NCBI GenBank assembly: GCA_951406725.2 | Contig: OX597817.1 | Location: 93,248,001 to 93,312,000 of the forward strand | DNA length: 64,000 bases | Source of the DNA: Octopus vulgaris | Lineage: Eukaryota | Direction of reading: 5' to 3' | In this document: positions 5,781-59,282 of the stretch, in pieces | How positions within the stretch are numbered: the first letter of the stretch is position 1 | Layout of the letters: each line of letters begins with the position of its first letter | The notes under the pieces: model-generated | The model's input: the letters and a program-made list of their open reading frames with translations, nothing else | Told to the model about the DNA's origin: nothing | Databases searched by the model: none | Program-made: the position numbers and the translations under genes

Positions 5781-8290
5781 TTGGCAATACTGGGTGCTTT
5801 TTACGTGCTACCCGCACAGGTGCCAGATAGAGCTGGCAAATGGCCACGAACGGATGGTGCTTTTTACGTGCCACCGGCACGAGGCCAGTCGGGGCGGCGT
5901 TGGCAACGGTCGCGAAACGGAAGGTTCTCTTACATGCCACCGGCACTGGTAACACATCTGCAATTTCCATTGATCAATTTCGATTCTGATCCTCACTTGC
6001 CTCAACAGGTCTTCACAAGTAGAGTTTTGTGTCCCAAGAAGGGAAGGTATGCATACGTAGGCTGGCTTCATCCCATGTAGAAGGCCACGGGTTATGGACT
6101 CACTTGTCCTGCCGGGTCTTCTCGCGCACAGCACACTTCCAGAGGTCTTGGTCTCTAGTCATTTCCTCAGTGAGACCTAAAGTTCGAAGGTCGTGCTTCA
6201 CCACCTCGTCCCAGGTTTTCCTGGGTCTGCCTCTTCCGCAGGTTCCCTCAACCGCTAGGGTGTGGCACTTTTTCACACAACTATCTTCATCCATTCTCGC
6301 CACATGACCATACCAGCGCAAACGTCTCTCTTGCACACCACAACTGACGCTTCTTAGGTCCAGCTTTTCTCTCAAGGTACTTACACTCTGCCGAGTATGA
6401 GTACTGACATTACACATCCATCGGAGCATACTGGCTTCATTTCTTGCGAGCTTACGCGTATCCTCAGCAGTCACGGCCCATGTTTCACTGCCATGTAGCA
6501 TGGCTGTTCGTACACACGCATCATACAGTCTGCCTTTCACTCTGTGCAAGAGGCCTTTTGTCACCAGCAGAGGTAAGAGCTCTCTGAACTTTGCCCAAGC
6601 TATTCTTACTCTAGCAGTTACACTTTCAGCACACCCGCCCCCGTTGCTGACTTGGTCACCTAGGTAACGGAAACTATCAACTATTTCTAGTTTTTCTCCC
6701 TGGAAAGTGACGGAAGTTGGTCTCAGAGCATTTTCAGTGTTTATTGTTCCTGAGCATCTGCCACATACAAAAACCATCTTCCTAGTTAGCCTTCCTTTGA
6801 CATTGCTGCACCTCTTATGTGTCCATAGCTTACACTTGGTGCATCTTATAGAGTTTCTACCTACACCTTTTCTACAGATCGAGCAGGGCCATCTACCTGA
6901 AGGCGTTTGTGATTTGTCTACCTTCCTACTGATTACGACTTTGGTTTTAGCTAGATTGACTCTGAGGCCCTTCGATTCTAATCCTTGTTTCCACACCTGA
7001 AACTTCTCCTCCAGTTCTGATAGCGACTCAGCAATTAGAGCAAGGTCATCAGCATAGAGGAGCTCCCAAGGGCATCCTGTCTTGAATTCCTCCGTTATTG
7101 CCTGGAGGACTATGATAAATAGGAGGGGGATGAGGACTGAGCCTTGGTGGACCCCTACCTCTACCCGGAATTCTTCACTGTACTCGTTGCCAACCCTCAC
7201 CTTACTAGCAGCGTCCCTATACATGGCTTGCACAGCTCTCACTAACCATTCATCTATCCCTAGTTTCCTCATTGACCACCAGATAAGGGATCGGGGGACC
7301 CTGTCGAAGGCTTTCTCCATGTCAACGAAAGCCAAGTACAGGGGCTTATCTTTAGCCAGGTATTTCTCCTGCAGCTGCCTTACCAGGAATATAGCATCAG
7401 TAGTACTTTTCCCTAGCACAAACCCAAACTGCATCTCATCTAAACTAACTCTCTCTCTAATTAGTTGGGCTATGACCCTCTCCGTAACCTTCATCACCTG
7501 ATCCAACAGCTTGATACCTCTGTAGTTATTTGTATCTAGGGCGTCACCTTTACCTTTGTAGCAGTTGACTATTATGCTGCTACACCAGTCATTGGGTATG
7601 ACTCCTTTGTGTATCACCTGATTAACTATACGGGTGACTAGGCTATAGCCGACACTACCAGACATTTTGAGCATCTCTGCAGTGATTCCTGATGGGCCTG
7701 GGGCTTTCCCTGTCTTCATGCTTCTAATTGCCTTAGCTACCACGGAACTATCAACTCGGATAGCTGGTCCCTCTGTTGGGTCAACATTCGGCAGACTCTC
7801 TTTATCCCATTCATTTTCTTTATTCAGCAACCTTTCATAGTGGCATCTCCAAACCTCTCTCTTTGCATCCTCATTTAGCACAAGTGAACCATCTTCCATG
7901 CGAACACACTTCTCTCCTACCACATCTCGATTCTCTTTCACACACTGTCTTGCAATGCGAAACACCTCCAGTCTTTGGTCCTCACGATGCAGAACATTGG
8001 CAAATTTTTTCTTATCTGCTTCCCCTCTGGCTAAATAAACCTGTCTCCTAGCTTCTCTTTTGGCAGTCTGCTACCCCCATTTTTCCAGACCTTCCAAGCC
8101 TGTCTCTTTTCTCTAATAGCCCTGTCTACAATATTGTTCCACCACCACGTTATTCTAGGTCGAGAGGGGACTTTGCACCAGCCACTGACCAGATCTGTGG
8201 CTGGTGCAAAGTCCCCTCCCGACCTTTGACGAAGTAGAAGGGGATAGAGCCTCATAGGGGGTAGAAGACAACTGGACGTTTCTAAGGGAC
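5781..8290 (-). mobile_element. RTE-clade LINE copy 1, 5'-truncated, with a small 5' inversion
   Basis: ORF 6100-7965 has YRGIKLL, FVDMEKAFDRV, GVHQGSVL and LLYADDLAL. It is near-identical to the copies at 44940 and 55868. The 3' UTR minisatellite is at 5781-5950. Confidence 0.95.
6100..7965 (-). pseudogene. RTE reverse transcriptase ORF (621 aa open, endonuclease missing) with an embedded PHD-like finger
   Basis: YADD catalytic motif. Cys/His cluster WPCSICRKGVGRNSIRCTKCKLWTHKRCS...FVCGRC. Confidence 0.9.
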
Positions 8291-22867: not shown

Positions 22868-23439
22868 GGATCTTTTCAAATTTGTGGCCAGGACCCCAGA
22901 TCTTTCTAGTTAACTAAATAATTTGAAACTTTGTGTACTCATAGAGTGGAACTAGTTTATTCGCCAGTTGGAACTAGTTTATTTGAGAAAAATCTATTTT
23001 ATGACTTTAATCGTAGATTAAAACTGCGAATTTTAACCAATGAGATTGCTTGTTTTCATATCTAAAACGTTACTGCGATCTGTTAGTGTGACGTTGAAAG
23101 CAGTTTTGTGACGTAGTTGAAGACGGCTTATAAGCACGTCTGCTATTTCTAAAAAGCTTTGTGTGTGGTAAAGTAATTTTTTTACTTTACCATATTTTTA
23201 TAAATTATATCGGAGAATCCATATTTTTATAAATTATATCGGAGAATCCATATTTTTATAACATATATCGGAGAATCCATGTGATTTTTCGTTGTTTTTC
23301 TCTTATACATATGTGAATTATTTCTGAGTATGCATTGTCTGGGAGACTTTTTCTTGCAGTTGAGAAATTTTTGGCTGCTATTTCTAAAAAGCTCGGTGTG
23401 TGGTTAAGTAATTTTTTTACTTTACCATATTTTTATAAA

Positions 23440-23476
<37 letters not shown>

Positions 23477-42369: not shown

Positions 42370-43160
42370 GACAGAAGACCGAGACCTCTAGAGATATGCT
42401 GTGACTGCAAAGACCTGATAAATAATGTGAGTTCATGGCTGTTTCCTGCACCAGCTTCACATAGAAGCCCCAGCCCATCCAAAGTGCCTTGGATCGCAGG
42501 ACGGCCTGCTGTACTTACCTTGGATCATAGGGCGACCTGCTGTGCTTGAGGAGACCTATTGAGTCAAGTACATCAGCATCAAAAAATCAAATGGAAATTG
42601 TAGTTGCGATACCTATGCTGGTGGCACGTAAAATGCACCATCCGTACGTGGCCAATGTCAGCGCCGCCTTGACTGGCTTCTGTGCCAGTGGCACGTAAAA
42701 AGCACCAACCGATCATGGCCATTTCCAGCCTACCCTGGCACTTGTGGCCAGTGGCACGTAGAAAAAATGCACCATCCATATGTGGCTGATGCCAGCGCTG
42801 CCTTGATTGGCTTCTGTGTTGGTGGCACGTAAAAAGCACCAACCGATCGTGGATGTTGCCAGCCTCCCCTGGCACGTAAAAAGCACCATCCATATGTGGT
42901 CAGTGTCAGCGCCACCTTGACTGGCTTCCATACCGGTGGCACGCAAAAAATACCAACCGATCGAGGCCATTTCCAGCCTCCCTTGGCACGTAAAAAGCGC
43001 GCACTACACTCACGGAGAGGTTGGCGTTAGGAAGGGCATCCAGCTGTAGAAACACTGCCAGATCAGACTGGAGCCTGGTGCAGCCTCCTGGCTTGCCAGA
43101 CCCCGGTCGAACCATCCGACCCATGCTAGCATGGAAAACAGGCGTTAAATGATGATGAGG
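42370..43160 (+). mobile_element. RTE 3' UTR-only copy with minisatellite and (GAT)n tail
   Basis: Repeated GGCACGTAAAAAGCACCA units and the end CCCATGCTAGCATGGAAA..TTAAATGATGATG. Confidence 0.8.
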
Positions 43161-44939
43161 ATGATATATATATATATATATAAATACATAAATACAGAAA
43201 CATATACACACACATGCATATATATATATATATACGATGGGCTTCTTTCAGTTTCTATCTACCAAATCCACTCACAAGGCTTTGGTCAGCCTGAGGGCTA
43301 TAGTAGAAGACGCTTGCCCAAGGTGCCACGCAGTGGGACTGAACCTGGAACCATGTGGTTACTAAGGAAGCTACTTACCATATTTTTAAAATCTTAGGGA
43401 ATAATAAGCATTCCAGGTTATCAGGACATTTACTATTTTACACTGTACTAATGCAATGTAAACAGTATCATTTATAATATTACTAGCAGAGATACCCGGT
43501 GTTGCCCGTATTACATTCAATTGAAGAATTAGACTTTTCTGTTATATTTTCTGTAATGGACTGGAATATCTATGTTTCTAATTTCATCAAAATTGCAGAT
43601 GAGGGTTATTTTCCTCTTTACACACCCTAAAAAAATTGTAATCATGTCACATGTATCCCATACTACTAATTTTTATGCACATATTCCAAAATCCCACTCT
43701 TATTGAACCTGTTAAAAAGATTTTGCTCCTGAAAAATGAAGGTCATGGAGCTCTAAAATGTGAGAGTTAAGGCCCCTGTTGGGGGTAGGCATCTTCATGT
43801 CAACCAGAGAAGTTGAATTGTTGAGAATCTTTTTAACTTGGGTCTTATATCTATTGTTTGAATTTCTTTGAAATAGGAAATATATGTTCACTGGGTTTGA
43901 ATGATCACAATAAGTAGTCAGCTACCCTACCTTAGTCGTTACCACTCTCAATGTAGGATTCTTCACCATCCAGGTGACAGGCACAGCCATAAGATGCATT
44001 ACAAATGTATAGCAATTGGAAGGGCGTGACCCAACTGAAATCAGCGTTAACAACTGTGTGATGTGAGGGCTAAGGAGAAATGAAAGTGTCACCTCTGGAA
44101 TTTGCAAATGACCACTATACTGATACGTAACTGGACAGAATAAATTTACAATCTATAAATGTCTTTGAATAACCAGTCACTTACCTGGGAAGGCCTTGAA
44201 ATCAATGTTACCATCTGGCGACTATATGTGACCCAATGATAATAAAAAGACTGAAAGGAGGTCTGCAATCAAATAACTATACTCAACACTTTGCAACTGA
44301 ATAAGTGGAGGCAAAGATGCCTCTCTTTTACTTGACAATTTATGCACCACATTGCAGAAATCACAATGTAAGTGTATGTCAAAGCAAACTGTTACTCTGT
44401 TGTACCATTGAATTACAAATAATGCTCATCTTTTATGCTCGGGTGACCCTACAGCTTCCAAGAGCACAACTGTATTCATTTTTGCTTAGATAAAATGACA
44501 AAATTGTGGGTGTTAAGTCCCCATGGAGGGTTCTTTCTAACTTGTAAGATGATAAAATTTTATAAATATTAACAAACACCATTTGTGAAGCAGTGATGAG
44601 GGAGAAACACAAAGACACACACATAGACTAACATATATACATACATATATATACAATTGATTTCTTTCAGTTTCTGTCTACAAAATCCACTGACAAGGCT
44701 TTGGTTGGTCTGAGGCTATAGCAGAAGACACATGCCAAGTTACCACACAGTGGGACTGAACTGAGGACCATGTGTTTTGGAACTAAGTTTGTTACTACAC
44801 AGCCACACCTGCACCTATGTATGTGTGTGTGTGTGTGTGTATGTGTGTATGGGTGTATATATGTATGCATGTATATATATGTATATATATGTGTATATAT
44901 TGCATGTACATCTATATCTATAGAAATACATGTATACAT

Positions 44940-46527
44940 AGCTCCTCTATGCTGATGACCTTGCTCTAATTGCTGAGTCATTATCAGAACTGGAGAAGAA
45001 GTTTCAGGTGTGGAAGCATGGTTTAGAATCGAAGGGCCTTAGAGTCAACCTAGCTAAAACCAAAGTCCTAATAAGTAGGAAGGTAGACAAATCACAAACG
45101 CCTTCAGGTAGATGGCCCTGCTCGATCTGTAGAAAAGGTGTAGGTAGAAACTCTATAAGATGCACCAAGTGTAAGCTATGGACACATAAGAGGTGCAGCA
45201 ATGTCATAGGAAGGCTAACTAGGAAGATGGTTTTTGTATGTGGCAGATGCTCGGGAGCATTAACCTCTGAAAATCTGCAGAAAACAACTTCCGTCACTTT
45301 CCAGGGGAAAAAACCAGAAGTAGTTGATAGCTTCCGTTATCTTGGTGACCAAGTCAATAGTGGGGGTGGGTGTGCTGAAAGTGTAACGGCTAGAGTAAGA
45401 ATAGCCTGGGCAAAGTTTAGGGAGCTCTTACCTCTGTTGGTGACTAAAGGCCTCTCGCTCAGAGTAAAAGGCAGACTGTATGATGCATGTGTACGAACAG
45501 CCATGCTACATGGCAGTGAAACATGGGCCGTGACTGCTGAGGACATGCGTAAGCTCGCGAGAAATGAAGCTAGTATGCTCCGTTGGATGTGTAATGTCAG
45601 TGTTCATAGTCGACAGAGTGTAAGTACCTTGAGAGAAAAGTTGGACCTAAGAGGAATTAGATGTTGTGTGCAAGAGAGACGATTGCGCTGGTATGGTCAT
45701 GTGGTGAGAATGGATGAAGATAGGTGTGTGAAAAAGTGCCACACCCTGGCAGTTGAGGGGACCTGTGGAAGAGGTAGACCCAGGAAAACCTGGGTCGAGG
45801 TGGTGAAGCACGACCTTCGAACTCTAGGTCTCACCAAGGAAATGACCAGAGACCGAGACCTATGGAAGTATGCTGTGTGTGAGAAGACCCGGCAAGACCA
45901 GTGAGAACAATCAAAATCAAATCATATATCAGAAAGCAGGGGTTAAGTGACCCATCCGTTCGTGTCCGCTGTCAGCCTCGTCTGGCACCCGTGCCGGTGA
46001 TACGTAAAAGCACCATTCGCTGGCCCCATGTCGGTGGCACGTAAAAGCACCATCCGTTCGTGGTCGTTTGCCAGCTCTGTCTGGCCCCGTGTCGGTGGCA
46101 CGTAAAAGCACCATCCGTTCGTGTCCGTTGCCAGCCTCGGCTGGCCCCCGTGCCGGTGACACGTAAAAGCACCGTCCGTTCGTGGCCGGTTGCCAGCTCT
46201 GTCTGGCCCCGTGTCGGTGGCACGCAAAAGCACCATCCGTTCGTGTCCGTTGCCAGCATCGCCTGGCCCCGTGCCGGTGACACGTAAAAGCACCATCCGT
46301 TCGTGGCCGTTCGCCAGCTCTGTCTGGCACCTGTGCAGGTGGCACGTAAAAAACACCCACTACACTCGCGGAGTGGTTGGCGTTAGGAAGGGCATCCAGC
46401 CGTAGAAACACTGCCAGATATGACTGGGCCTGACGAAGCCTTCCAGCTTCACAGACCCCAGTTGACCCGTCCAACCCATGCTAGCATGGAAAGCGGACGC
46501 TAAACGATGATGATGATGATGATGATG
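44940..46527 (+). mobile_element. RTE-clade LINE copy 2, 5'-truncated at the YADD region
   Basis: ORF 45008-45904 is nearly identical to the C-terminal half of 6100-7965. Minisatellite 3' UTR and (GAT)n tail. Confidence 0.95.
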
Positions 46528-46733
46528 TATACATATATGGCAATACATATAGATGTATACATATACAGCTATACATATACATGTATACATATACATCTAT
46601 ATATATATACATGTATACATATACATCTATATATATACATGTATATATATATATGTATATATATACATCCATATATATATACATGTATATATATATATAT
46701 ACATCTATATATTTACATCTATATGTATACATC

Positions 46734-46766
<33 letters not shown>

Positions 46767-46954
46767 AAAGGGCTTAGTAAAATAAATTACTTTGCCACAT
46801 ACTGAACTCATTAGAAATAGCAGCTAAAAAATTTTTTTTTTTTTTTTTTAACTATTTCTAATACTTAAAAAGAAAATCTCATATAGTGTTTTCTCAATTC
46901 AACTCACGAAAGTATGGGGGTAAAGACATTAAAAAATCAAATGCAAAGGTTATT

Positions 46955-47006
46955 TGAGAACATACTTTTCTAGATTAGTCAAATCGACATTTCTTTCGTC
47001 AGCTCA
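46955..47006 (-). ncRNA. Type I hammerhead motif, family A unit 1 (stem III mutated)
   Basis: TGAG-CTGACGA-stem II-GAAA-AGTATG-TT-CTCA; the palindrome CGTACG has decayed. Confidence 0.6.
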
Positions 47007-47512
47007 GAATTCCTTGGTTCGGATTTGGAAACACTGAAAGTGGGAGCATACCCTTTCGGCTTCTTATCGCTTCTGAAGATCCGCTCGAACTATCAGTGCC
47101 AGCAAATTCAAAATATGCAAGCGAAGAATTTCTGCTCTCCCCTTTCCACCAGCGTGGGTTAAAATCAGTAAACACTATGTTTTATCGGTAAAATCGAGAG
47201 AGATGAATTATAATTTCAACAATTGAGGGTAAAATTAATTAATTATTAATCAATTTCACCAAGTATTCAGTATGCAAAGGGACCAATTAAGGCGAATTCA
47301 AATTATTACATTATATAAAAGGGCTTAGTAAAATAAATTACTTTGCCACATACTGAACTCATTAGAAATAGCAGCTAAAAATTTTTTTTTTTTTTTTTTT
47401 TTTAAAACTATTTCTAATACTTAAAGAAAATCTCTCTCATATAGTGTTTTCTCAATTCAACTCACGAAAGTATGGGGGTAAAGACATTAAAAAATCAAAT
47501 GCAAAGGTTATT

Positions 47513-47564
47513 TGAGAACGTACGTTTCTAGATTAGTCAAATCGACATTTCTTTCGTCAGCTCA
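47513..47564 (-). ncRNA. Type I hammerhead ribozyme, family A unit 2
   Basis: TGAG-CTGACGA-AAGAAATGTCGATTTGACTAATCTA-GAAA-CGTACG-TT-CTCA: intact core, palindromic stem III, GUU triplet. Confidence 0.78.
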
Positions 47565-48074
47565 GAATTCCTTGGTTCGGATTTGGAAACACTGAAAGTG
47601 GGAGCATACCCTTTCGGCTTCTTATCGCTTCTGAAGATCCGCTCGAACTATCAGTGCCAGCAAATTCAAAATATGCAAGCGAAGAATTTCTGCTCTCCCC
47701 TTTCCACCAGCGTGGGTTAAAATCAGTAAACACTATGTTTTATCGGTAAAATCGAGAGAGATGAATTATAATTTCAACAATTGAGGGTAAAATTAATTAA
47801 TTATTAATCAATTTCACCAAGTATTCAGTATGCAAAGGGACCAATTAAGGCGAATTCAAATTATTACATTATATAAAAGGGCTTAGTAAAATAAATTACT
47901 TTGCCACATACTGAACTCATTAGAAATAGCAGCTAAAAAAAATTTTATTTTTTATTTTTTTTTTTTAAACTATTTCTAATACTTAAAGAAAATCTCTCTC
48001 ATATAGTGTTTTCTCAATTCAACTCACGAAAGTATGGGGGTAAAGACATTAAAAAATCAAATGCAAAGGTTATT

Positions 48075-48126
48075 TGAGAACGTACGTTTCTAGATTAGTC
48101 AAATGGACATTTCTTTCGTCAGCTCA
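48075..48126 (-). ncRNA. Type I hammerhead ribozyme, family A unit 3
   Basis: Same as unit 2 with one stem II loop change. Confidence 0.78.
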
Positions 48127-48148
48127 GAATTCCTTGGTTATTAGAAAT

Positions 48149-48184
<36 letters not shown>

Positions 48185-48557
48185 TTTAGCTGCTATTTCT
48201 AATGAGTTCAGTATGTGGCAAAGTAATTTATTTTACTAAGCCCTTTTATATAATGTAATAATTTGAATTCGCCTTAATTGGTCCCTTTGCATACTGAATA
48301 CTTGGTGAAATTGATTAATAATTAATTAATTTTACCCTCAATTGTTGAAATTATAATTCATCTCTCTCGATTTTACCGATAAAACATAGTGTTTACTGAT
48401 TTTAACCCACGCTGGTGGAAAGGGGAGAGCAGAAATTCTTCGCTTGCATATTTTGAATTTGCTGGCACTGATAGTTCGAGCGGATCTTCAGAAGCGATAA
48501 GAAGCCGAAAGGGTATGCTCCCACTTTCAGTGTTTCCAAATCCGAACCAAGGAATTC

Positions 48558-48609
48558 TGAGCTGACGAAAGAAATGTCGATTTGACTAATCTAGAAACGT
48601 ACGTTCTCA
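48558..48609 (+). ncRNA. Type I hammerhead ribozyme, family A inverted unit
   Basis: TGAG CTGACGA ... GAAA CGTACG TT CTCA on the + strand. Confidence 0.78.
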
Positions 48610-48961
48610 AATAACCTTTGCATTTGATTTTTTAATGTCTTTACCCCCATACTTTCGTGAGTTGAATTGAGAAAACACTATATGAGAGAGATTTTCTTTT
48701 AGAAATAGTTTAAAAAAAAAAAAAAAATTTTTTTAGCTGCTATTTCTAATGAGTTCAGTGTGTGGCAAAGTAATTTATTTTACTAAGCCCTTTTATATAA
48801 TGTAATAATTTGAATTCGCCTTAATTGGTCCCTTTGCATACTGAATACTTGGTGAAATTGATTAATAATTAATTAATTTTACCCTCAATTGTTGAAATAT
48901 ATATATATATATATATATACATCTATATATATATATATTTATATATATATATATATATATA

Positions 48962-49609
48962 TAAATGAAAGAATGGAGTTGAACGACGAATTAACAAAAT
49001 TCCTTTATTTTATTTTCGACATATCCACACACACATAGCCATTAATGCAGTTATATACATACACACACATAGGCACTCATTCACAAAAGAAAACAACAAA
49101 ATCACCATTCATTTGACCTGCACCCTTTTACCTTCCTATTCTTAGGTCTCTCTCCTCCAACCTTGTTTGAACCCTTGAACCTTCTAGAATCTTCTACATT
49201 CAACCATTTTTGATGTCACTGCTTATAACGGAATATTTTAAAGAAACACTCATTATCGCTATGGGCTCCGTGTGGGCAGTCATCTAAAAGTTTTTGTGCA
49301 TCTTGATGCTGACATAAGTTCCTTACTTTTCCTGATGAGAAGGCGGCATAATGCACCCCTTATTCCTTCGAAATTAGGAATATGCAGCCTTCGAAACATA
49401 TGTCGAAAATAAAATAAAGGAATTTTGTTAATTCGTCGTTCAACTCCATTCTTTCATTTATTTGTATTTAAAAAAACACACAAATTTCCACACGATAGCA
49501 CGTGATCTCTGCCCTAGGCATGTAGCTTCAACCGTGTTTTTCTGACGTGAATTTGCTACCCAGGTATCGGTTAACCGAATTATCCATAAAATAATTCATT
49601 CAACTATTC

Positions 49610-49612
<3 letters not shown>
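48962..49612 (+). mobile_element. Penelope-pLTR/retrozyme-like non-coding element (family C) with an inverted duplication
   Basis: 48962-49024 is the reverse complement of 49398-49460. Contains a hammerhead and is flanked by (TA)n. Confidence 0.7.
49327..49409 (+). ncRNA. Type I hammerhead ribozyme, family C
   Basis: TTTTC-CTGATGA-GAAGGC...GCCTTC-GAAA-CATATG-TC-GAAAA: 5-bp stem I, 6-bp G-C-closed stem II, palindromic stem III, GUC triplet. Confidence 0.9.
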
Positions 49613-49663
<51 letters not shown>

Positions 49664-50071
49664 ACATGTAAATTTGAATTTAAAATAATAAGGGTGAAAG
49701 ATTGAATATTAATTTGATTAATATGAATTGAAAACCAGTGGTGTAGCATATAAGACCATAGTGGATCTTCTTCTAGCAAAATGGATGTCCACTCTTCATG
49801 GTTCAATCCTGTTATATAATAGTTTCACTTTAATAGTTTCAGTATTAAACTGAAAGCCTTTCTTTCACTTTTAACACGTAATACTGAAATAGTGGAGAAG
49901 ATATGATGTTGCTGTGGGCTTGCCCTAGGCAGAAAATTAAAAAATTTTTCTTGCCCCTGACACTCCCTGGATCCTAAGTAAGGCATGTGTAAAATTTGAA
50001 ATTGGTTGTGTAGTTCTCAAGTTTTAGGGATTCACACAGACAGACACACATTCTCAGTTTTATATATATAG

Positions 50072-50289
50072 ATTATAAATTTGGGATATTTCCAATAGAA
50101 CTGCAACTCCTATTTTAGGATAACCTTATGGTATGGAATATTAATTGAAAATTTTATTGTATTTTATAGTAGGTTTTTTTTTTTAATGCTTATATAATTT
50201 TATTGGATACAACTTCCTATGTGTATTCCATACAATAAGGTTATCCTGAAATAGGAGTTGCAGTTCTATTGGTAAAATCCCAAATTTGT

Positions 50290-50292
<3 letters not shown>
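50072..50292. repeat. Fold-back element with ~68-bp imperfect arms
   Basis: CCAATAGAACTGCAACTCCTATTT..GGATAACCTTAT mirrored by ATAAGGTTATCC..AAATAGGAGTTGCAGTTCTATTGG. Confidence 0.85.
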
Positions 50293-50324
<32 letters not shown>

Positions 50325-50488
50325 GAGAGAGAGAGAATTAGTGTATAAACATCATAAAATTAATCTATTGTAAATAAGAAATAAATTAGTAATAGATAGT
50401 TAAACTCCAACACTTGTATGTCCAAGTAGTACCAACTTGCATGTATATATGTAAGTGGTTAAAACAACCTTTTAAGAGTAGCAGACAA

Positions 50489-51232
50489 AAATCTAGTTGG
50501 TTTGGCTGCCAGCATTAATTCTGTTCAAATTGATTTCATATTCAGTGTAATGATACACTTTTATAGGTTAATGAATGACATGAAAATCATTTTCGCTATA
50601 AATCAATAAATAAAGTGTTATTAGCAATTAAAGTTTGAAAATTTTGGGTAATTTTAGCCAATCGTAAGCCACAGAGACATTCATGCCTGTTTCCATAGTA
50701 GCAAGCCAAACATGAGAACTGTTTTGTCAGCAAGAAAGCACATGTGTTGACAAATATATTCTACGCGATGCCATGTGCATTGACTCTGTGTACTGTTGCT
50801 TGTACTCTGGTCGTAAGATGTGCTAAAAATAACAGCTAAATAGGCTTTAAATAATTTTTTTTGCATAATTGTATGGATTCCTGTCTGTAGAGTACAAATT
50901 TGCAAAAAAAAAATTTCTGAAAATTCCAAATTTTAAAAATGTTATGAGGGGTTATATGTTGTACGTTAAGCAGAATTCGATTTGTTTACTGTTTCTTATA
51001 AAAACACATGCTATTTTCACAATGTTGACAGTATGTGCAGTCTCACACAAAATGACAGCTTCCAAATCCTGCTTGCTGACTTGGTGAAAATGATCAAACT
51101 TTAAAACATTTTCCTGGAAAAAGTGAAATAACTGCAGCAATTTAGCTTAGAAAAAAATATTAATGTGTCAAATTTTAAAATTGTTGATTAACTTTAATTT
51201 TTGAAATGCTGGCAGCCAAACCAACTAGATGT
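50489..51232. mobile_element. MITE with a 26-bp perfect inverted repeat and an 8-bp flanking duplication
   Basis: ATCTAGTTGGTTTGGCTGCCAGCATT (50491) / AATGCTGGCAGCCAAACCAACTAGAT (ends 51230). GCAGACAA at 50481 and 51233. Confidence 0.85.
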
Positions 51233-51857: not shown

Positions 51858-54623
51858 TCAGGTGTAGTTTCGGCGGATTTCGGAAAGCATGAGGGCCTTA
51901 AAAGATGCAGTGTCATGGCAGTCAACAACTGACGCAGGCAGTTTATTCCATGCTTCAGCAACTCTGAGCGTGAAAAAATGTTTCCGAAAGTCATGGGAGC
52001 TGTATTGTTTTCTGACTTTGTAGGCATGTCCACGTGTGTTAGACACATGGAGATCAAAAAGGTGTTCAGTGTTGTTGTTGGTGAGGTGGTTGATAACTTT
52101 GTGGGTGTTTACCAAGTCCGTCGCCAAACGCCGGAGCTTCAGTGAATCCATGCCCAGGGAAACAAGGCGCTCAGAATATGGTAGGTGTCTGATGGAGGGT
52201 ATGCGTTTGGTTGCACGTCTCTGGACAGATTCCAGGAGGTCAATGTTCTGTGCAAGATAGGGGTTCCAAACTGATGATGCGAATTCCAAGTGTGGTCGTA
52301 CCATAGCTGTATACAGTTTTAAATAGATGGCTGGAGAGCGGCTAACAAAAGACCTGCTGAGTGATGCCAAGACACCCTCGGCCTTCCTGACAATCTTAGA
52401 GATATGCTTTGACCAACGCAAATCACTGCTGACAGTGATGCCTAGGTCACGCTCACAAGAGGATTTCTTGATATCAGTGTTGTGGAGGGAGTATGTGAAC
52501 GCAGGGTTTTTTCTCCCAAAATGCATGGTGGTACACTTGTCCACAGCCAGTTTCAGTTGCCAGTCTGTGATCCATTGCTGCATTGTGTCTAGGTCTGATT
52601 GCAGGAAAGAGTTGTAGACATCAGGATCTGTCCTCTTGATTTCAAGGTACAGCTTGATGTCGTCTGCATATTTCAATACTGTGGCATTCTTTAAATTGGC
52701 ATCTATGTCGTTAATGTATGCCACAAACAAGAGGGGACCAAGGACAGATCCCTGTGGTACACCCGATGACATCTCATATGGTGTAGAGTGCTGTCCTAGA
52801 ACTGTGACTACCTCCTTTCGGCTGAGGATGAAGGATTTCAACCAGTTAAAAAGGTCATCCCCCACACCCATTGCAGAGAGTTTCACCATAAGCCTTTTGT
52901 GTGGCACAGAGTTGAAAGCCTTAGCAAAGTCAAGGTAGACAACATCCACCCATGAGCCACTGTCAGTAATCTGAGTAATGTCCTCAAGGAACTCGACAAG
53001 CTGGTCACTGCAGCTGGAGTTAGGGACAAATCCATATTGTGAGGGTCGGATGAGACTGTGAGAGCTCCAGAATTTCCAGAGTGTTTCTCTGACACACGAT
53101 TCCATCAGTTTTGCAATACAGCTAGTGAGACTGACTGGGCGATAGTTGACAGGTGATGTGCGGTCGCCCTTTTTGAACAGAGGAATGACACTGGCAGTTT
53201 TCCACTGCTCCGGAGTAGCACCATTGTTGAGACAGTACTGGAAGAAAATAGAAAGCTGGTGTAAAAGGAAGTGCCTGCCACGTTTGAGAAGCAGGTATGT
53301 AACTCCATCGAGACCAGGGGAGGCATAGTTGCGCTTATTTTGAAGGTGACGTCGCAGTATTGCAGGTGTAAATTCCATAGTTGTTATGGAGTTTGCTGTT
53401 AGTGATGGTGAAGATGGTACATTTTGACTTTCAACAGTGAATATGTTTGCATAGCACTCGGCAATGAGTTCTGCGCATTCCTTGGGGTCGTCAGTGATCT
53501 GGTTTGTGTGAGGGTTGCGAAGAGGGCCCACTGGAGAGTGAGGTCTCTGCTTTGAGTGCACATATTTCCAGAAAACCTTGCTGTCAGGATTGGCTGCTAT
53601 GCACTGTTCAAATTCAAGCACTGCTTTTTTTGTCACTTGCTTGAGATGGTTGGAGGATTTATTCCGCTTCTTCCTGTTGGTGTCTGATTTATGCAACCTG
53701 TATTCTCGTTCAGCAGTCTGACGTTCCCTCCTGGCAAGTCGGACCGCTGAAGTTTCCCAAATTGCCCTTTTGGGGCGGTTCTTCTTTTTTTGTTTACGTG
53801 GCACTGATGCTGCACATGCTGCCCATATTGAGTCCAGGATACTCTGGAGTATAGTATTCACATCTCCAGAGTTGTAGAATTCACGCCAGTTTGGGTGCTG
53901 TAGTTCAGTGTGGTACAGGTTCCAATCTGCTCTCTTCCAATCGAAGGAAGCAGATTGGAGATGGTTCAGGTTTTTGTTGCCCGCAAGAGCCAGATTGGCG
54001 ATGATCATAGCATGATCAGAGTCACCTAGAGGTTCCTCCGTAGTGCAATTGATAACTGCTTCAGGAGTTGTGGTGAAGAGCAGGTCCAAGGTGTTGTCGC
54101 CTCTTGTTGGAGAGGTGACTACTTGTGACCAGTTTGAGTCCAGCACAAGCTCAACAAAATCGTTTGCACTCTGTGGCCAATGGAAGGTCTCCCAATCGAT
54201 CTCAGGATGATTGAAATCGCCTGCAATAAACACATAAGTGGCTGTTTTCCTGGCAGCAGCTCGGAGGACATTGCAAAGCTGTGTGTCCCGATGGTAACTT
54301 GGGGGACGATAAACAACGCCAAGCAGGAGTGTTGACATGGTCATACGCACGTCACAGAAAAAAACTTCTTCTTGTGATTCGTTCAAATCGGCACAAGGAA
54401 TTACCAAAAAATTTGAACGAACGTAGACCATCACACCACCACCACGGCGGTTAGTGCGGTCCTTACGGAAGAGGTTGTACCCCGTAATGTTGAAAACCCC
54501 ATCACAGAGTAAGGAATGCGCCCATGTTTCCGTGACAGTGATGAAGTCAGGGTCAACACTTCTGACGTAGGCGTTGAACAAATGTATTTTGTTGCATAAA
54601 CTGCGAGCATTTAAGGACAACAA
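51858..54623 (-). CDS. CR1 ORF2: AP endonuclease plus reverse transcriptase, 921 aa
   Basis: NARSL, VTETW, GDFN, LDL, SDH (APE); NYRPVSLTS, YLDFAKAF, GVPQGSVLGP, YADD (RT). No internal stops. The called start is not ATG. Confidence 0.92.
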   Translation of the reverse strand: MLSLNARSLCNKIHLFNAYVRSVDPDFITVTETWAHSLLCDGVFNITGYNLFRKDRTNRRGGGVMVYVRSNFLVIPCADLNESQEEVFFCDVRMTMSTLLLGVVYRPPSYHRDTQLCNVLRAAARKTATYVFIAGDFNHPEIDWETFHWPQSANDFVELVLDSNWSQVVTSPTRGDNTLDLLFTTTPEAVINCTTEEPLGDSDHAMIIANLALAGNKNLNHLQSASFDWKRADWNLYHTELQHPNWREFYNSGDVNTILQSILDSIWAACAASVPRKQKKKNRPKRAIWETSAVRLARRERQTAEREYRLHKSDTNRKKRNKSSNHLKQVTKKAVLEFEQCIAANPDSKVFWKYVHSKQRPHSPVGPLRNPHTNQITDDPKECAELIAECYANIFTVESQNVPSSPSLTANSITTMEFTPAILRRHLQNKRNYASPGLDGVTYLLLKRGRHFLLHQLSIFFQYCLNNGATPEQWKTASVIPLFKKGDRTSPVNYRPVSLTSCIAKLMESCVRETLWKFWSSHSLIRPSQYGFVPNSSCSDQLVEFLEDITQITDSGSWVDVVYLDFAKAFNSVPHKRLMVKLSAMGVGDDLFNWLKSFILSRKEVVTVLGQHSTPYEMSSGVPQGSVLGPLLFVAYINDIDANLKNATVLKYADDIKLYLEIKRTDPDVYNSFLQSDLDTMQQWITDWQLKLAVDKCTTMHFGRKNPAFTYSLHNTDIKKSSCERDLGITVSSDLRWSKHISKIVRKAEGVLASLSRSFVSRSPAIYLKLYTAMVRPHLEFASSVWNPYLAQNIDLLESVQRRATKRIPSIRHLPYSERLVSLGMDSLKLRRLATDLVNTHKVINHLTNNNTEHLFDLHVSNTRGHAYKVRKQYSSHDFRKHFFTLRVAEAWNKLPASVVDCHDTASFKALMLSEIRRNYT

Positions 54624-54711
54624 TTTGTACCCTGCTCGCAGTTTATGATGGTGTGTAGAGGATGGCAGGTTGTTCTGGCTTAGTTTCCCTGAGTTGCTGT
54701 AGTCTTTTTAG

Positions 54712-55274: not shown

Positions 55275-55330
55275 CATACATATATATATACATATACACA
55301 TATATATACATATATATATATACATATATA

Positions 55331-55867
55331 CTTTATAATAGGGTTCAGCAAAGATTTGCTTTACCACATACCGAAATTTAGAAATAGCAGCCAAAGAACG
55401 TTAGCTGTTTCCTCTACTTTAAAGAGAGACTCCCAGAAAAAATCAAATTACTTGAAAACAATCCACGAAGGCAGAGAGGAAAAATAACGAAAATCAATCG
55501 ATATTAGATTACCCATGTACGCGTTTCGGAATTAGATCGGTATAAAGAATGTGTAATTTATACTTTACCCAAACATTTTCTTCATCAGCATGGGACTTCA
55601 CAATATTAGATATTAAAAATATTAAATTCGAAGGCACTGGAAGAACTGAACATATCTCTCCAACTAACGGTATCAGACAGATCAAATTCAACGTCAGTAC
55701 CACCGAATTAAAAAATAAACGAATGAAGTTCATTACCTTCCCCTGCCCATCCACGTGTGTCGTCAAGTAAAATACTACAGAAAAAATCTGTAGTTTATTA
55801 TCAGGGAGAAAATTATATTACCAATAATAACAAAGGGTAAAATTAATTATTTAACTAGTAATCAATG
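55331..55867 (-). repeat. Hammerhead-containing non-coding repeat, family B copy 1
   Basis: Inverted homologue at 58717-59183. Shares sequence blocks with family A. Adjacent to (TA)n. Confidence 0.85.
55512..55594 (-). ncRNA. Type I hammerhead ribozyme, family B
   Basis: CCCATG-CTGATGA-long stem II-GAAA-CGCG-TA-CATGGG: perfect 6-bp stem I, palindromic stem III, GUA triplet. Confidence 0.85.
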
Positions 55868-58716
55868 ATTACTGATGAGCGACTTCAGGATCAGGGCCGA
55901 ATGGCTGCCCAGAAGAAGACCAGCTCAGAGGAGAAGGGTCTGGAAGCTTAAAGATCCTGCTAATGGACGGAGATTTAGAGACGTCCTACTCGAAGCCTTC
56001 GACGAAATAGAAGGGGATATAGCTTCACATAATGTGGAAGACAACTGGAGGTTTCTACGGGACAATCTGCTGAGAGCCACTGACCAGATCTGTGGATGGA
56101 GCAAAGTCCCATCTCGTCCCAGGGTAACGTGGTGGTGGAATAATGTTGTAGACAGGACTATTAGAGACAAGAGACAGGCTTGGAAGGACTGGAAGAATGG
56201 TGGTAGCAGGGAATTGTATCAGACTGTGAAAAGAGAAGCTAGGAGACAGGTTTGTTTAGACAGGGAAGCAGATAAGAAAAAATTTGCCAATGTTCTGCGC
56301 CGTGAGGACCAAAGACTTGAAGTATTTCGTGTTGCAAGACAGTATGTGAAAGAGAATTGTGATGTGGTAGGAGAGAAATGTGTTTGCATGGATGATGGTT
56401 CACTTGTGCTAAATGAGGATGCAAAGAGAGAGGTTTTGAGATGCCACTATGAAAGGTTGCTCAACAAAGAAAATGAATGGGATAAAGAGAGTCTGCCAAT
56501 TGTCGACCCAACAGTGGGACCAGCTATCCGAGTTGACAGTTCTTTGGTAACTAAGGCAATTAGAAGCATGAAGACAGGGAAAGCCCCAGGCCCATCAGGA
56601 ATCACTGCAGAGATGCTCAAAATATCTGGCAGTGTCGGATATAGCCTAGTCACCCGTATAGTTAACCAGGTGATACACGAAGAAGTCATACCCAATGACT
56701 GGTGTAGTAGCATGACAGTCAACTGCTACAAAGGTAAAGGTGACGCCCTAGATACAAGTAATTACAGCGGTATCAAGCTGTTGGATCAGGTAATGAAGGT
56801 TATGGAAAGGGTCATAGCCCAACTGATTAGGGAGAGAGTCAACTTGGACGAGATGCAGTTCGGTTTCGTGCCAGGGAAAAGCACCATCGATGCCATATTC
56901 CTGGTGAGACAGCTGCAGGAGAAATACCTAGCCAAAGATAAACCTCTGTACCTGGCTTTCGTTGACTTGGAGAAAGCCTTTGACAGGATCCCCCGATCCC
57001 TTATCTGGTGTTCAATGAGGAAACTAGGGATAGATGAATGATTATTGAGAGCTGTGCATATACAGGGACACTGTTAGTAAGGTGAGGGTTGGCAACGAGT
57101 ACAGTGAAAAATTCTGGGTAGAGGTTGGGGTCCACCAAGGTTCAGTCCTCAGCCCCCTCCTATTTATCATAGTCCTCTGGGCAATAACGGAGGAATTCAA
57201 GACAGGATGCCCCTGGGAGCTCCTCTATGCTGATGACCTTGCTCTAATTGCTGAGTCACTATCAGAACTGGAGGAGAAGTTTTAGACGTGGAAGCAAGGA
57301 TTAGAATCGAAGGGCCTTAGAGTAAACCTAGCTAAAACCAAAGTCCTAATAAGTAGGAAGGTAGACAAATCACATACGCCTTCAGGTAGATGGCCCTGCT
57401 TGATCTGTAGAAAAGGTGTAGGTAGGAACTCCATAAGATGAACCAAGTGTAAGCTATGGACACATAAGAGGTGCAACAAAGTCAAAGGAAGGCTAACTAG
57501 GAAGATACTTTTTGTATGTGGCAGATGCTCTGGTGCAATAAACACTGAAAATGCGCAGAGATCATCTTCTGCCACATTCCAGGGAGAAAAACTAGAAATA
57601 GTTGATAGTTTCCATTACCTCGGTGACCAAGTCAGTAGTCGGGGCGGGTGTGCTGAAAGTGTAACTGCTAGAGTAAGAATAGCCTGGGCAAAGTTCAGAG
57701 AGCTCTTACCTCTGCTGGTGACAAAAGGCCTCTCGCTCAGAGTAAAAGGCAGACTGTATGACGCATGTGTACGAACAGCCATGCTACATGGCAGTGAAAC
57801 ATGCTCCGTGACTGCTGAGGATATGCGTAAGCTCACAAGAAATGAAGCCAGTATGCTCCGATGGATGTGTAATGTCAGTGTTCACACCCGACAGAGTGTA
57901 AGTACCTTGAGAGAAAAGTTGGACCTAAGAAGCATCAGATGTGGTGTGCAAGAGAGACATCTACACTGGTATGGACACGTGGTAAGAATGGATGAAGATA
58001 GTTGTGTGAAAAAGTGCCACACGCTAGTGGTTGAGGGAACCTGTGGAAGAGGTAGACCCAGGAAAACCTGGGACGAGGTGGTAATGCATGACCTTCGCGC
58101 TTTAGGTCTCACCAAGGAAATGATCAGAGACCGAGACCTTTGGAAGTATGCTGTGCGTGAGAAGACCCGGCAGGACAAGTGAGGCCATAACCCGTGGCCT
58201 CTACCTGGGACGTAGTCAGTCCACCTGTGCATACCTTCCTTCTTGGGACACAAAACTCTGCTTGTGAAGACCTGTTGAGGCAAGTGAAAATCAAAATCGA
58301 AATCGATCCACATCAATGGAATTTGTAGTTGTAATACCAGTGCCGGTGGCATGCAAGAGAACCATCCGAACGTGGCCATAGCCAGTGCCGCATCGACTGG
58401 CCTCCATGTCGGTGGCACGTAACAAACACCATCCGATTGTGGCCATTGCCAGCCTCGCCTGGCCTCCGTGCCGGTGGCACATAAAAAGCACTATCCGAGC
58501 GTGGCCGTTCGCCAGCCTCGTCTGGCACCCGTTTCGGTGGCACGTAAAAAGCACCCACTACACTTACGGAGTGGTTGGCATTAGGAAGGGCATCCAGCTG
58601 TAGAAACACTGCCAGATCTGACTGGGCCTGGTGCAGCCTTCGGGCTTCCCAGACCCCAGTTGAACCGTCCAACCCATGCTAGCATGGAAAGCGGATGTTA
58701 AACGATGATGATGATG
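55868..58716 (+). mobile_element. RTE-clade LINE copy 3 (longest; stops and frameshift)
   Basis: ORFs 55875-57041, 57082-57285 and 57718-58182 are collinear with 6100-7965. Minisatellite UTR and (GAT)n tail. Confidence 0.95.
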
Positions 58717-59183
58717 ATGTTGAATTTGATCTGTCTGATACCGTTAGTTGGAGAGTTATATTCGGTTCTTCCAGTGCCTTTGAATTTAATATTTTTAATA
58801 TTTAATATTGTGAAGTCCCATGCCGATGAAGAAAATATTCGGGTAAAGTATAAATTACACATTCTTTATACCGATCTAATTCGGAAATGCGTACATGGGT
58901 AATCTAATATCGATTGATTTTCGGTATTTTTCTTCTCTGCCTTTGTGGATTGTTTACAAGTAATTTCTTTTTTCCGGGAGTCTCTTTTTGAAGTAGAGGA
59001 AATAGCTAAGGTTCTTTGGCTGCTATTTCAAAACTTTGGTATGTGGTAAAGCAAATCTTTGCTGAACCCTATTATAAAGTATTACTTTAATTTACTGTGA
59101 AATGGTCCTTTTTCATGCCGAATTCTACTTGGTGAAATTATTGATTACTACTTAATTAATTAATTTTACCCTTTGTTATTATT
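58717..59183 (+). repeat. Family B copy 2, inverted and circularly permuted relative to copy 1
   Basis: Reverse complement of 55331-55693, continuing through a 60-nt junction into the reverse complement of 55825-55867. Confidence 0.85.
58817..58899 (+). ncRNA. Family B hammerhead with a core mutation (CCGATGA), probably inactive
   Basis: CCCATG-CCGATGA-...-GAAA-TGCG-TA-CATGGG. Confidence 0.65.
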
Positions 59184-59282
59184 AATATATACATATATAT
59201 ATATACATACATATATATATATACATATATAGTAAACAGACAAAAGAATGATATTGGTGTTGCATAATGGTCATAACCTTTA

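Follow-up and report, generated by a model that had tools for sequence, protein, structure and literature searches.

A hammerhead-bearing non-coding repeat family of Octopus vulgaris with inverted, one-tailed insertions in (TA)n: a probable retrozyme mobilised by Penelope-like machinery

Background

Non-LTR retrozymes described from coral, mussel and axolotl (PMC7229834) consist of low-GC, non-coding tandem units with one type I hammerhead each and a short palindromic helix III, and they co-occur with Penelope-like elements (PLEs). The octopus family reported here is similar in all of these features, and a stem II base mismatched as U.U is likewise described for axolotl HHR_Amex2. Units are 545-594 nt long in octopus, sister families included, versus about 170-400 nt in the metazoan retrozymes of that report, the accessible text of which describes no inverted arms, fixed ends or (TA)n target and contains neither the word 'inverted' nor 'microsatellite'. 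Cleavage and circles were demonstrated there, and RtcB ligated the axolotl and mussel monomers to circles in vitro, whereas the octopus motif is a prediction from sequence. Non-LTR retrozymes have also been presented as non-autonomous PLE derivatives (10.64898/2026.07.22.740005). The octopus family agrees with them in class and proposed partner, and its unit falls within their range of 51-972 bp. However, the PLE link in that source, which in its accessible part samples no mollusc, consists of co-occurrence and pLTR homology in Xenopus, and here it consists of an insertion signature. Eight of nine predicted Xenopus retrozyme dimers showed no cleavage in vitro in the same source.

Endonuclease-bearing PLEs such as Neptune, Poseidon and Naiad (PMC8557442, PMC11167929, PMC4209133) form partial tandems with an inverted 5′-truncated copy and a tail often at one end, insert in AT-rich or (TA)n targets and carry hammerheads in their repeats, all similar to the present family. 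A one-ended tail has already been described as frequent in PLEs (PMC8557442). Unlike these elements, the octopus family has no ORF and its whole element is the repeat unit; its tail measures 97-101 nt versus 30-40 nt in described PLEs (PMC8557442). A PLE protein, predicted to act as a dimer, cuts and extends both strands, with internal starts at two tail-bounding sites (PMC11167929). For the anole PLE in vitro, the start site was equal on both strands and the hammerhead was dispensable (PMC11167929). Non-autonomous Chlamys PLEs such as MRC1 are also non-coding PLE passengers with multicopy head-to-tail insertions, but their 3′ end resembles the autonomous partner and their clade is described without canonical hammerheads (PMC8557442).

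The class, a non-LTR retrozyme as non-autonomous PLE passenger, and its link to PLEs are therefore already published, and the octopus family is a new member. Neither the family nor a strict one-tail rule was found described in the open literature as far as it was accessible; the family may already be present in Repbase, Dfam or Zenodo libraries, or in subscription literature about PLE structure. In the supplement of PMC13282606, 'ribozyme', 'hammerhead' and 'retrozyme' have no occurrences.

Architecture of the insertion

In the window, i.e. the whole stretch of 64,000 nucleotides that was analysed, the repeat region is one insertion between two TA microsatellites, composed of a minus arm (46759-48139) and an inverted plus arm (48139-48898). 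The arms meet back to back at 48139 with an overlap of 1 nt, and the outer ends of both pass into (TA)n. The minus arm comprises 1,381 nt, about 2.5 head-to-tail units, the third unit being a 275-nt fragment. The plus arm comprises 760 nt, about 1.35 units, with an intact hammerhead motif that is the fourth of the insertion. The following features were annotated.

46543-46760, no strand: TA-rich microsatellite, left half of the target
46759-48139, minus: left arm; its 3′ end is the fixed site E1, without tail, into (TA)n
46951-47010, minus: hammerhead motif of unit 1, stem III decayed (AAGTATGT), predicted cleavage 3′ of 46959
47206-47375, minus: conserved 3′ RNA fold, copy 1, enclosing E1, with a terminal hairpin before E2
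47509-47568, minus: hammerhead motif of unit 2 with a GUU triplet, stem I TGAG/CTCA and stem III ACGTACGT; predicted cleavage 3′ of 47517
47517-48078, minus: predicted 562-nt monomer between both intact tandem cleavage sites
47764-47933, minus: 3′ fold, second copy
48071-48130, minus: hammerhead motif of the partial unit 3, with the stem II loop altered at one position; cleavage predicted 3′ of 48079
48139-48898, plus: inverted right arm; its 3′ end is the fixed site E2, with tail, into (TA)n
48189-48358, plus: 3′ fold, third copy, in the inverted arm
48554-48613, plus: fourth hammerhead motif, located in the right arm; cleavage predicted 3′ of 48605
48736-48898, plus: 3′ fold, terminal copy; 48802-48898 is the 97-nt E1-to-E2 tail, present at the plus-arm end only
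48897-48963, no strand: (TA)n, right half of the target

The original prediction had described three near-identical units ending at 48139. The repeat and its motifs are real, but the minus arm holds only about 2.5 units, the third being the fragment, and the element does not end there, as the inverted arm continues to 48898 with a further intact motif and (TA)n beyond. The description of the units as lacking an ORF was correct, since no stop-to-stop frame above 70 aa occurs in them. A search of the window for PLE proteins (RT and GIY-YIG endonuclease) gave no match. An assembly artefact, named beforehand as an outcome that would speak against the element, is unlikely, because 60 of 85 mapped loci share the inverted build with junctions at many different places.

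Hammerhead motif

Minus-strand type I motifs with predicted cleavage 3′ of 48079, 47517 and 46959 are spaced 562 and 558 nt apart, which confirms the motifs and spacings proposed earlier. The positions 46955, 47513 and 48075 given there belong to real motifs and mark where the CTCA strand of stem I ends. The hammerhead consensus (core, stems I-III and NUH) is present in consecutive units, with two intact motifs in the minus arm, according to our own descriptor, which left the inner pairing of stem III free and gave 0.33 matches per pass on shuffled sequence (1.02 Mb of loci). The Rfam scan suggested at the outset returned no hammerhead match at any threshold tried, in 44000-51000, in 47450-47650 or over the whole window. 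The identification consequently rests on the descriptor together with conservation. miRNA matches in the Rfam scan were rejected as (TA)n noise, every one lying under its gathering score.

Energy predictions give -9.8 kcal/mol for the homoduplex of the 8-mer stem III and 0.0 for the unit-1 variant, in which the duplex is lost, in agreement with the decay of stem III already noticed in that unit. The canonical hammerhead fold of the monomer is predicted to be weak (-2.6 kcal/mol), the minimum free energy structure being a different fold at -7.8 kcal/mol, and the predicted monomer circle has an MFE of -138 kcal/mol (z -5.7 vs 30 shuffles). Stem III words are self-complementary, with G.U allowed, in 15 of 20 distinct words across all loci collected, unrelated families included, which fits the dimer form of hammerheads (PMC4209133).

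Both the GUU triplet and the A.A opposition where stem II opens are present, as first read. Older subfamilies (L141, L167, L172) have a GUA triplet and a stem II base paired as A-U or G-U; younger subfamilies have GUU and a mismatch, A.A or U.U, at that base. A GUU triplet and a mismatch at the stem II base are non-optimal for hammerheads. Perhaps the ribozyme of the younger subfamilies is a damped version.

Family across the genome

The genome searched was a 2.8-Gb assembly of 227 contigs. The exact hammerhead pattern gave 1,708 matches (847 + 861) vs 0 + 0 in the reversed control, and a looser tail pattern gave 4,261 matches vs 0 in its control. The repeat is short, non-coding, tandem and low in GC, with many copies dispersed over many chromosomes. 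Eighty-five distinct loci were mapped: the window, 33 picked by likeness and 51 in chromosome order, the last drawn from the first 100 exact-pattern matches; six duplicate loci were removed. Inverted pairs make up 60 of the 85 loci and single arms 25. Arrays reach six units among the mapped loci and about ten in L172, so the count of genomic copies and tandem arrangement proposed as a check came out in favour of the element. More than one unit is present in 47% of 89 arms, and more than two in 9%.

Two sister families differ in their hammerhead. One has a 562-nt unit, 65% identical over 509 columns, and the other a unit of 592-594 nt. The latter is present in the window at 55328-55870 and 58715-59190 as an inverted E1+E2 pair interrupted by a 3-kb insertion, which we take to be RTE-like; its hammerhead is found at 55510-55596 (minus) with stem III ACGCGT. 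Remnants of the 562-nt sister family (that of L180-L208) occur at 23139-23470 with an E1 end in (TA)n. A second, unrelated hammerhead element at 48963-49470 adjoins the insertion ending at 48898 through a common (TA)n. Its motif at 49324-49412 (plus) possesses stem III ACATATGT and a GUC triplet, it has a short inverted arm, and relatives were found in L098, L138 and L228. Remoter elements with a related 3′ fold were detected by covariance model R1 in L134 (3-694, 531-nt period), L123 (1313-1463) and L103 (123-287).

The window also harbours long LINE-like ORFs, presumably of the RTE, CR1 and R4/Dong types, which are plentiful. These include an unbroken 949-aa frame at 51858-54707 (minus) with endonuclease- and RT-like motifs, which we take to be CR1/L2-type, and frames at 6100-8070, 44942-45904 and 55869-58182, which we assume to be RTE-like. 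A GC-rich tandem repeat of 61-67 nt lies at 46020-46351, 42621-42998 and 58340-58555, on the 3′ side of the RTE-like copies.

Ends, target and junctions

Arms have their 3′ ends at one or other of two fixed sites, E1 (unit position ~455-463, UUUUAUAUAAU) and E2 (~554-558, AAAUUAUA), which are both UA-rich and lie roughly 100 nt from each other, separated by the E1-to-E2 tail of 97-101 nt. Among the 54 inverted loci with both ends mapped at these sites, which exclude six of the 60 with one end elsewhere, 53 combine E1 with E2, one has E2+E2 and none E1+E1 (binomial P 3e-15). Seventeen further loci, sister families included, showed E1+E2 in 16 cases, the exception being L148 with E2+E2; the true ends of L167 are E2+E1. 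Overall, 69 of 71 inverted loci obey the one-tail rule. Among the single arms, 12 have their 3′ end at E1, 12 at E2 and one elsewhere. A (TA)4 or longer run occurs within 30 nt after 136 of 139 E1 or E2 ends.

Either arm can be the longer one: of 53 loci, 25 have the longer arm at E1 and 28 at E2, as illustrated by L038 (E1 3,304 nt vs E2 128 nt) and the window (1,381 vs 760 nt). The 5′ ends are scattered round the unit and lie within 3 nt of the cleavage site in 4 of 120 cases (1.5 expected, P 0.065), with noisy mapping of 5′ junctions at copies with private variants. Arms read through the predicted cleavage site. At the junctions between arms (n=60), overlaps of 1-6 nt were found in 21 and blunt joins in seven, many others having fillers or imprecise mapping.

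Mean divergence is 0.5% within an arm, 0.7% between the arms of a locus and 4.7% between loci. For the chromosome-order loci, compared over the variable half of the unit, the arms lie within 2% of each other in 21 of 22 loci, vs 3.5% of 462 cross-locus pairs (median 8.6%), and therefore both arms copy the same variant. The simplest reading of these comparisons would be that both arms derive from one RNA molecule; the shared variants could also come from one source locus that dominates in a given cell. Eleven loci have locus-private alleles common to both arms, 33 in total with 18 contributed by L061, and these alleles fit either origin. A nearest-neighbour test with all pieces (46 wins, 39 ties, 66 losses) was discarded, since short overlaps within the conserved half and the inclusion of loci picked for likeness confounded it.

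Conservation and the 3′ RNA fold

Variants shared by at least two loci have probably passed through transposition. Such variants occur at 0 of 11 columns of the hammerhead core vs 109 of 277 background columns (Fisher P 0.008), so the comparison of core and flanks suggested at the outset favours the ribozyme, and at 0 of 19 columns when stem I is added to the core (P 1e-4). The 3′ region has shared variants in 16 of 158 columns against the same background. Private, single-locus variants are about equal in both, with 52 of 158 columns in the 3′ region and 109 of 277 in the background.

The 3′ region encodes an RNA fold in which a long helix closes a loop containing E1, a small hairpin stands before E1, and a terminal hairpin stands just before E2. 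The 3′ 237 nt have a folding z of -6.0. For 25 pairs in three helices, 98.5% of cells are paired across 13 divergent but related copies, vs 32-45% in slid controls; these are 13 of 17 representative copies, four with local duplications being excluded. Two-sided changes were found at 4 of the 25 pairs, a count reached by 189 of 500 shuffles and not significant. The conserved fold of about 170 nt is likely to be a protein-recognition element.

Penelope-like elements in the same genome

Protein-coding PLEs with RT and GIY-YIG domains coexist in the genome and have a cysteine motif ahead of the endonuclease; they may be Neptune-like, going by the description in PMC8557442. Family B is apparently very young: at least 150 copies show 100% identity across 200 aa, and a 775-aa frame is present in many of them. 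Its loci (L229-L258, L259-L278) possess a minimal hammerhead variant with a CCCGAAGA core and a GTAC loop. In family A (L121, L125, L130-L132), the 781-aa RT/endonuclease frame is preceded by another of up to 479 aa, for which Pfam gave no match. A canonical hammerhead was not found in the family A repeat. Both families insert in (TA)n, and exactly one arm is tailed (~35 nt) in 10 of 10 inverted loci of family B and in 2 of 2 of family A. Nesting of elements in mutual (TA)n flanks was observed in L270, where a family-type E2 end directly follows a PLE family B end, and at L127 (4975-5375), where sister elements follow a PLE family A end.

No protein-coding PLE with the 3′ fold of the retrozyme was found among GIY-YIG, tail-pattern, sister-family and family B loci, or with a covariance model over 63 sources. 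Homology to a PLE pLTR was likewise not found; the PLE loci are the best-scoring families only, from 150 scored of 6,136 GIY-YIG candidates. The long 5′ flanks of single-arm loci gave no PLE protein match. PLE protein matches at family loci L044 and L062 are both outside the repeat, and L062 was rejected as a partner since the PLE there terminates roughly 1 kb upstream, in a separate (TA)n. The link to PLEs is a common insertion signature, not homology.

Proposed mechanism and alternatives

Insertion into (TA)n as inverted arms, with 3′ ends at two fixed sites and a conserved fold in the 3′ region, points to a Penelope-like enzyme and to a two-ended process; none of these features was part of the original prediction. 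Copying by a PLE enzyme is likely because the rule of one long and one short end is common to the protein-coding PLEs of this genome. We consider it probable that the family is a hammerhead retrozyme that is non-autonomous and mobilised by PLEs, and that target-primed reverse transcription from two ends, probably of a re-ligated circle, inserts it. As to the parts of this reading, insertion by PLE machinery is very likely in our view, two-ended priming seems likely, and on balance we lean towards a circular template. The earlier interpretation as a non-autonomous retrozyme with a borrowed reverse transcriptase gains from the dispersed multi-copy distribution, the invariant core columns among transposed variants and the palindromic stem III across families.

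A transcript of the tandem arm would cleave itself at hammerheads that pair via their palindromic 8-bp stem III, and the monomer would be ligated to a circle of 560 nt. A dimer of the PLE RT/GIY-YIG protein would then bind the conserved 3′ fold and cut both strands of (TA)n, one DNA end priming at E1 and the other at E2; the ends are observed, and this chemistry is the step we propose. Each cDNA, of the variable lengths observed (up to six units), would run through the cleavage site, and the two cDNAs would be joined back to back, often via an overlap of 1-6 nt or filler. A single-arm locus would result when only one cDNA survives. The case for the circle arises because the cleavage core is kept while the cDNA passes the cleavage site without stopping. 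Several observations speak against the overall reading: the failure to find a PLE with the 3′ fold, a tail longer than in described PLEs and in families A and B, the strand-equal start site and dispensable hammerhead of the anole PLE, the uncleaved Xenopus dimers, the negative Rfam scan and the weak canonical fold of the monomer. In four sequence runs, represented by contigs only and with RNA status guessed, no pile-ups of starts or ends were seen, and junction reads are non-diagnostic given the tandem DNA.

The PLE could instead carry out its two-ended insertion from a linear read-through tandem transcript, with the hammerhead only trimming or acting late and arrays growing by template jumps or unequal crossover. 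We regard this as rather unlikely, although uncleaved RNA was the main substrate of the anole PLE in vitro and hammerhead mutants were still inserted (PMC11167929), although the uncleaved Xenopus dimers (10.64898/2026.07.22.740005) also favour it, and although arms are mostly short. If a linear RNA were trimmed by the hammerhead, numerous arms would be expected to end at the cleavage site, yet 4 of 120 do, and the core is invariant among transposed variants. Arrays of 5-10 units with common variants also suit a monomer bottleneck, with tandem sources possible outside the sample of 85 loci vs 1,708 copies. Fold-back is a further way to obtain an inverted arm: a single cDNA from RNA would be copied on itself, and an endonuclease cutting at E1, roughly 100 nt short of the cDNA start, would resolve it. 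This accounts directly for same-variant arms and the one-sided tail, which has been ascribed to endonuclease resolution of an intermediate (PMC8557442). Nevertheless, a copy cannot exceed its template, and the fact that either arm may be the longer, the E1 arm in 25 of 53 loci, argues against fold-back and largely refutes it unless E1 arms expand after insertion. With the equal numbers of E1 and E2 ends in single-arm loci also against it, we consider it improbable.

The two remaining explanations dispense with the PLE. Insertion by a LINE enzyme (RTE, CR1 or R4/Dong type) in the manner of a SINE, with inversion by L1-like twin priming, would agree with the long LINE-like ORFs within the window and with the failure to find a PLE with a common 3′ region. 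In L1 twin priming the second primer site is variable. Here, both arms begin at fixed internal sites and either may span several units, and the one-tail rule is common to the PLEs of the genome, so that we judge a LINE origin very improbable. Least probable of all is a satellite-like relic that spreads at the DNA level with a vestigial hammerhead, a possibility suggested by the decayed stem III of unit 1, the GUU triplet and the mismatch at the stem II base. Fixed 3′ ends with random 5′ ends, targeting of (TA)n, dispersal over many chromosomes, the conserved core and the compensated 3′ pairs are all against it.

Implications

The PLE-mobilised retrozyme reading touches two questions. Which enzyme mobilises animal retrozymes, and whether the circle is copied, were both proposed without test in PMC7229834, as far as its accessible text goes. 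The origin of inverted one-tailed PLE insertions belongs to the features of the transposition cycle that PMC8557442 calls undefined. The family offers a rule with hardly any exceptions (69 of 71 inverted loci; PLE family B, 10 of 10) and a covarying fold of 170 nt, and the genome adds two candidate proteins with intact frames (775 and 781 aa). With these, the in vitro assay already published for a PLE could address both questions directly.

More tentatively, the family may represent an old lineage of circular RNAs of about 560 nt, with families down to 65% identity, which persists with no homology to the repeats of a partner and in which the folded element sets two priming sites and an asymmetric PLE dimer copies the same circle from both, one subunit always at E1 and the other at E2. 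If this is true, a single two-ended reaction on one RNA would produce the inverted one-tailed insertions of every PLE, and the octopus loci would preserve in an animal genome the traces of rolling-circle reverse transcription.
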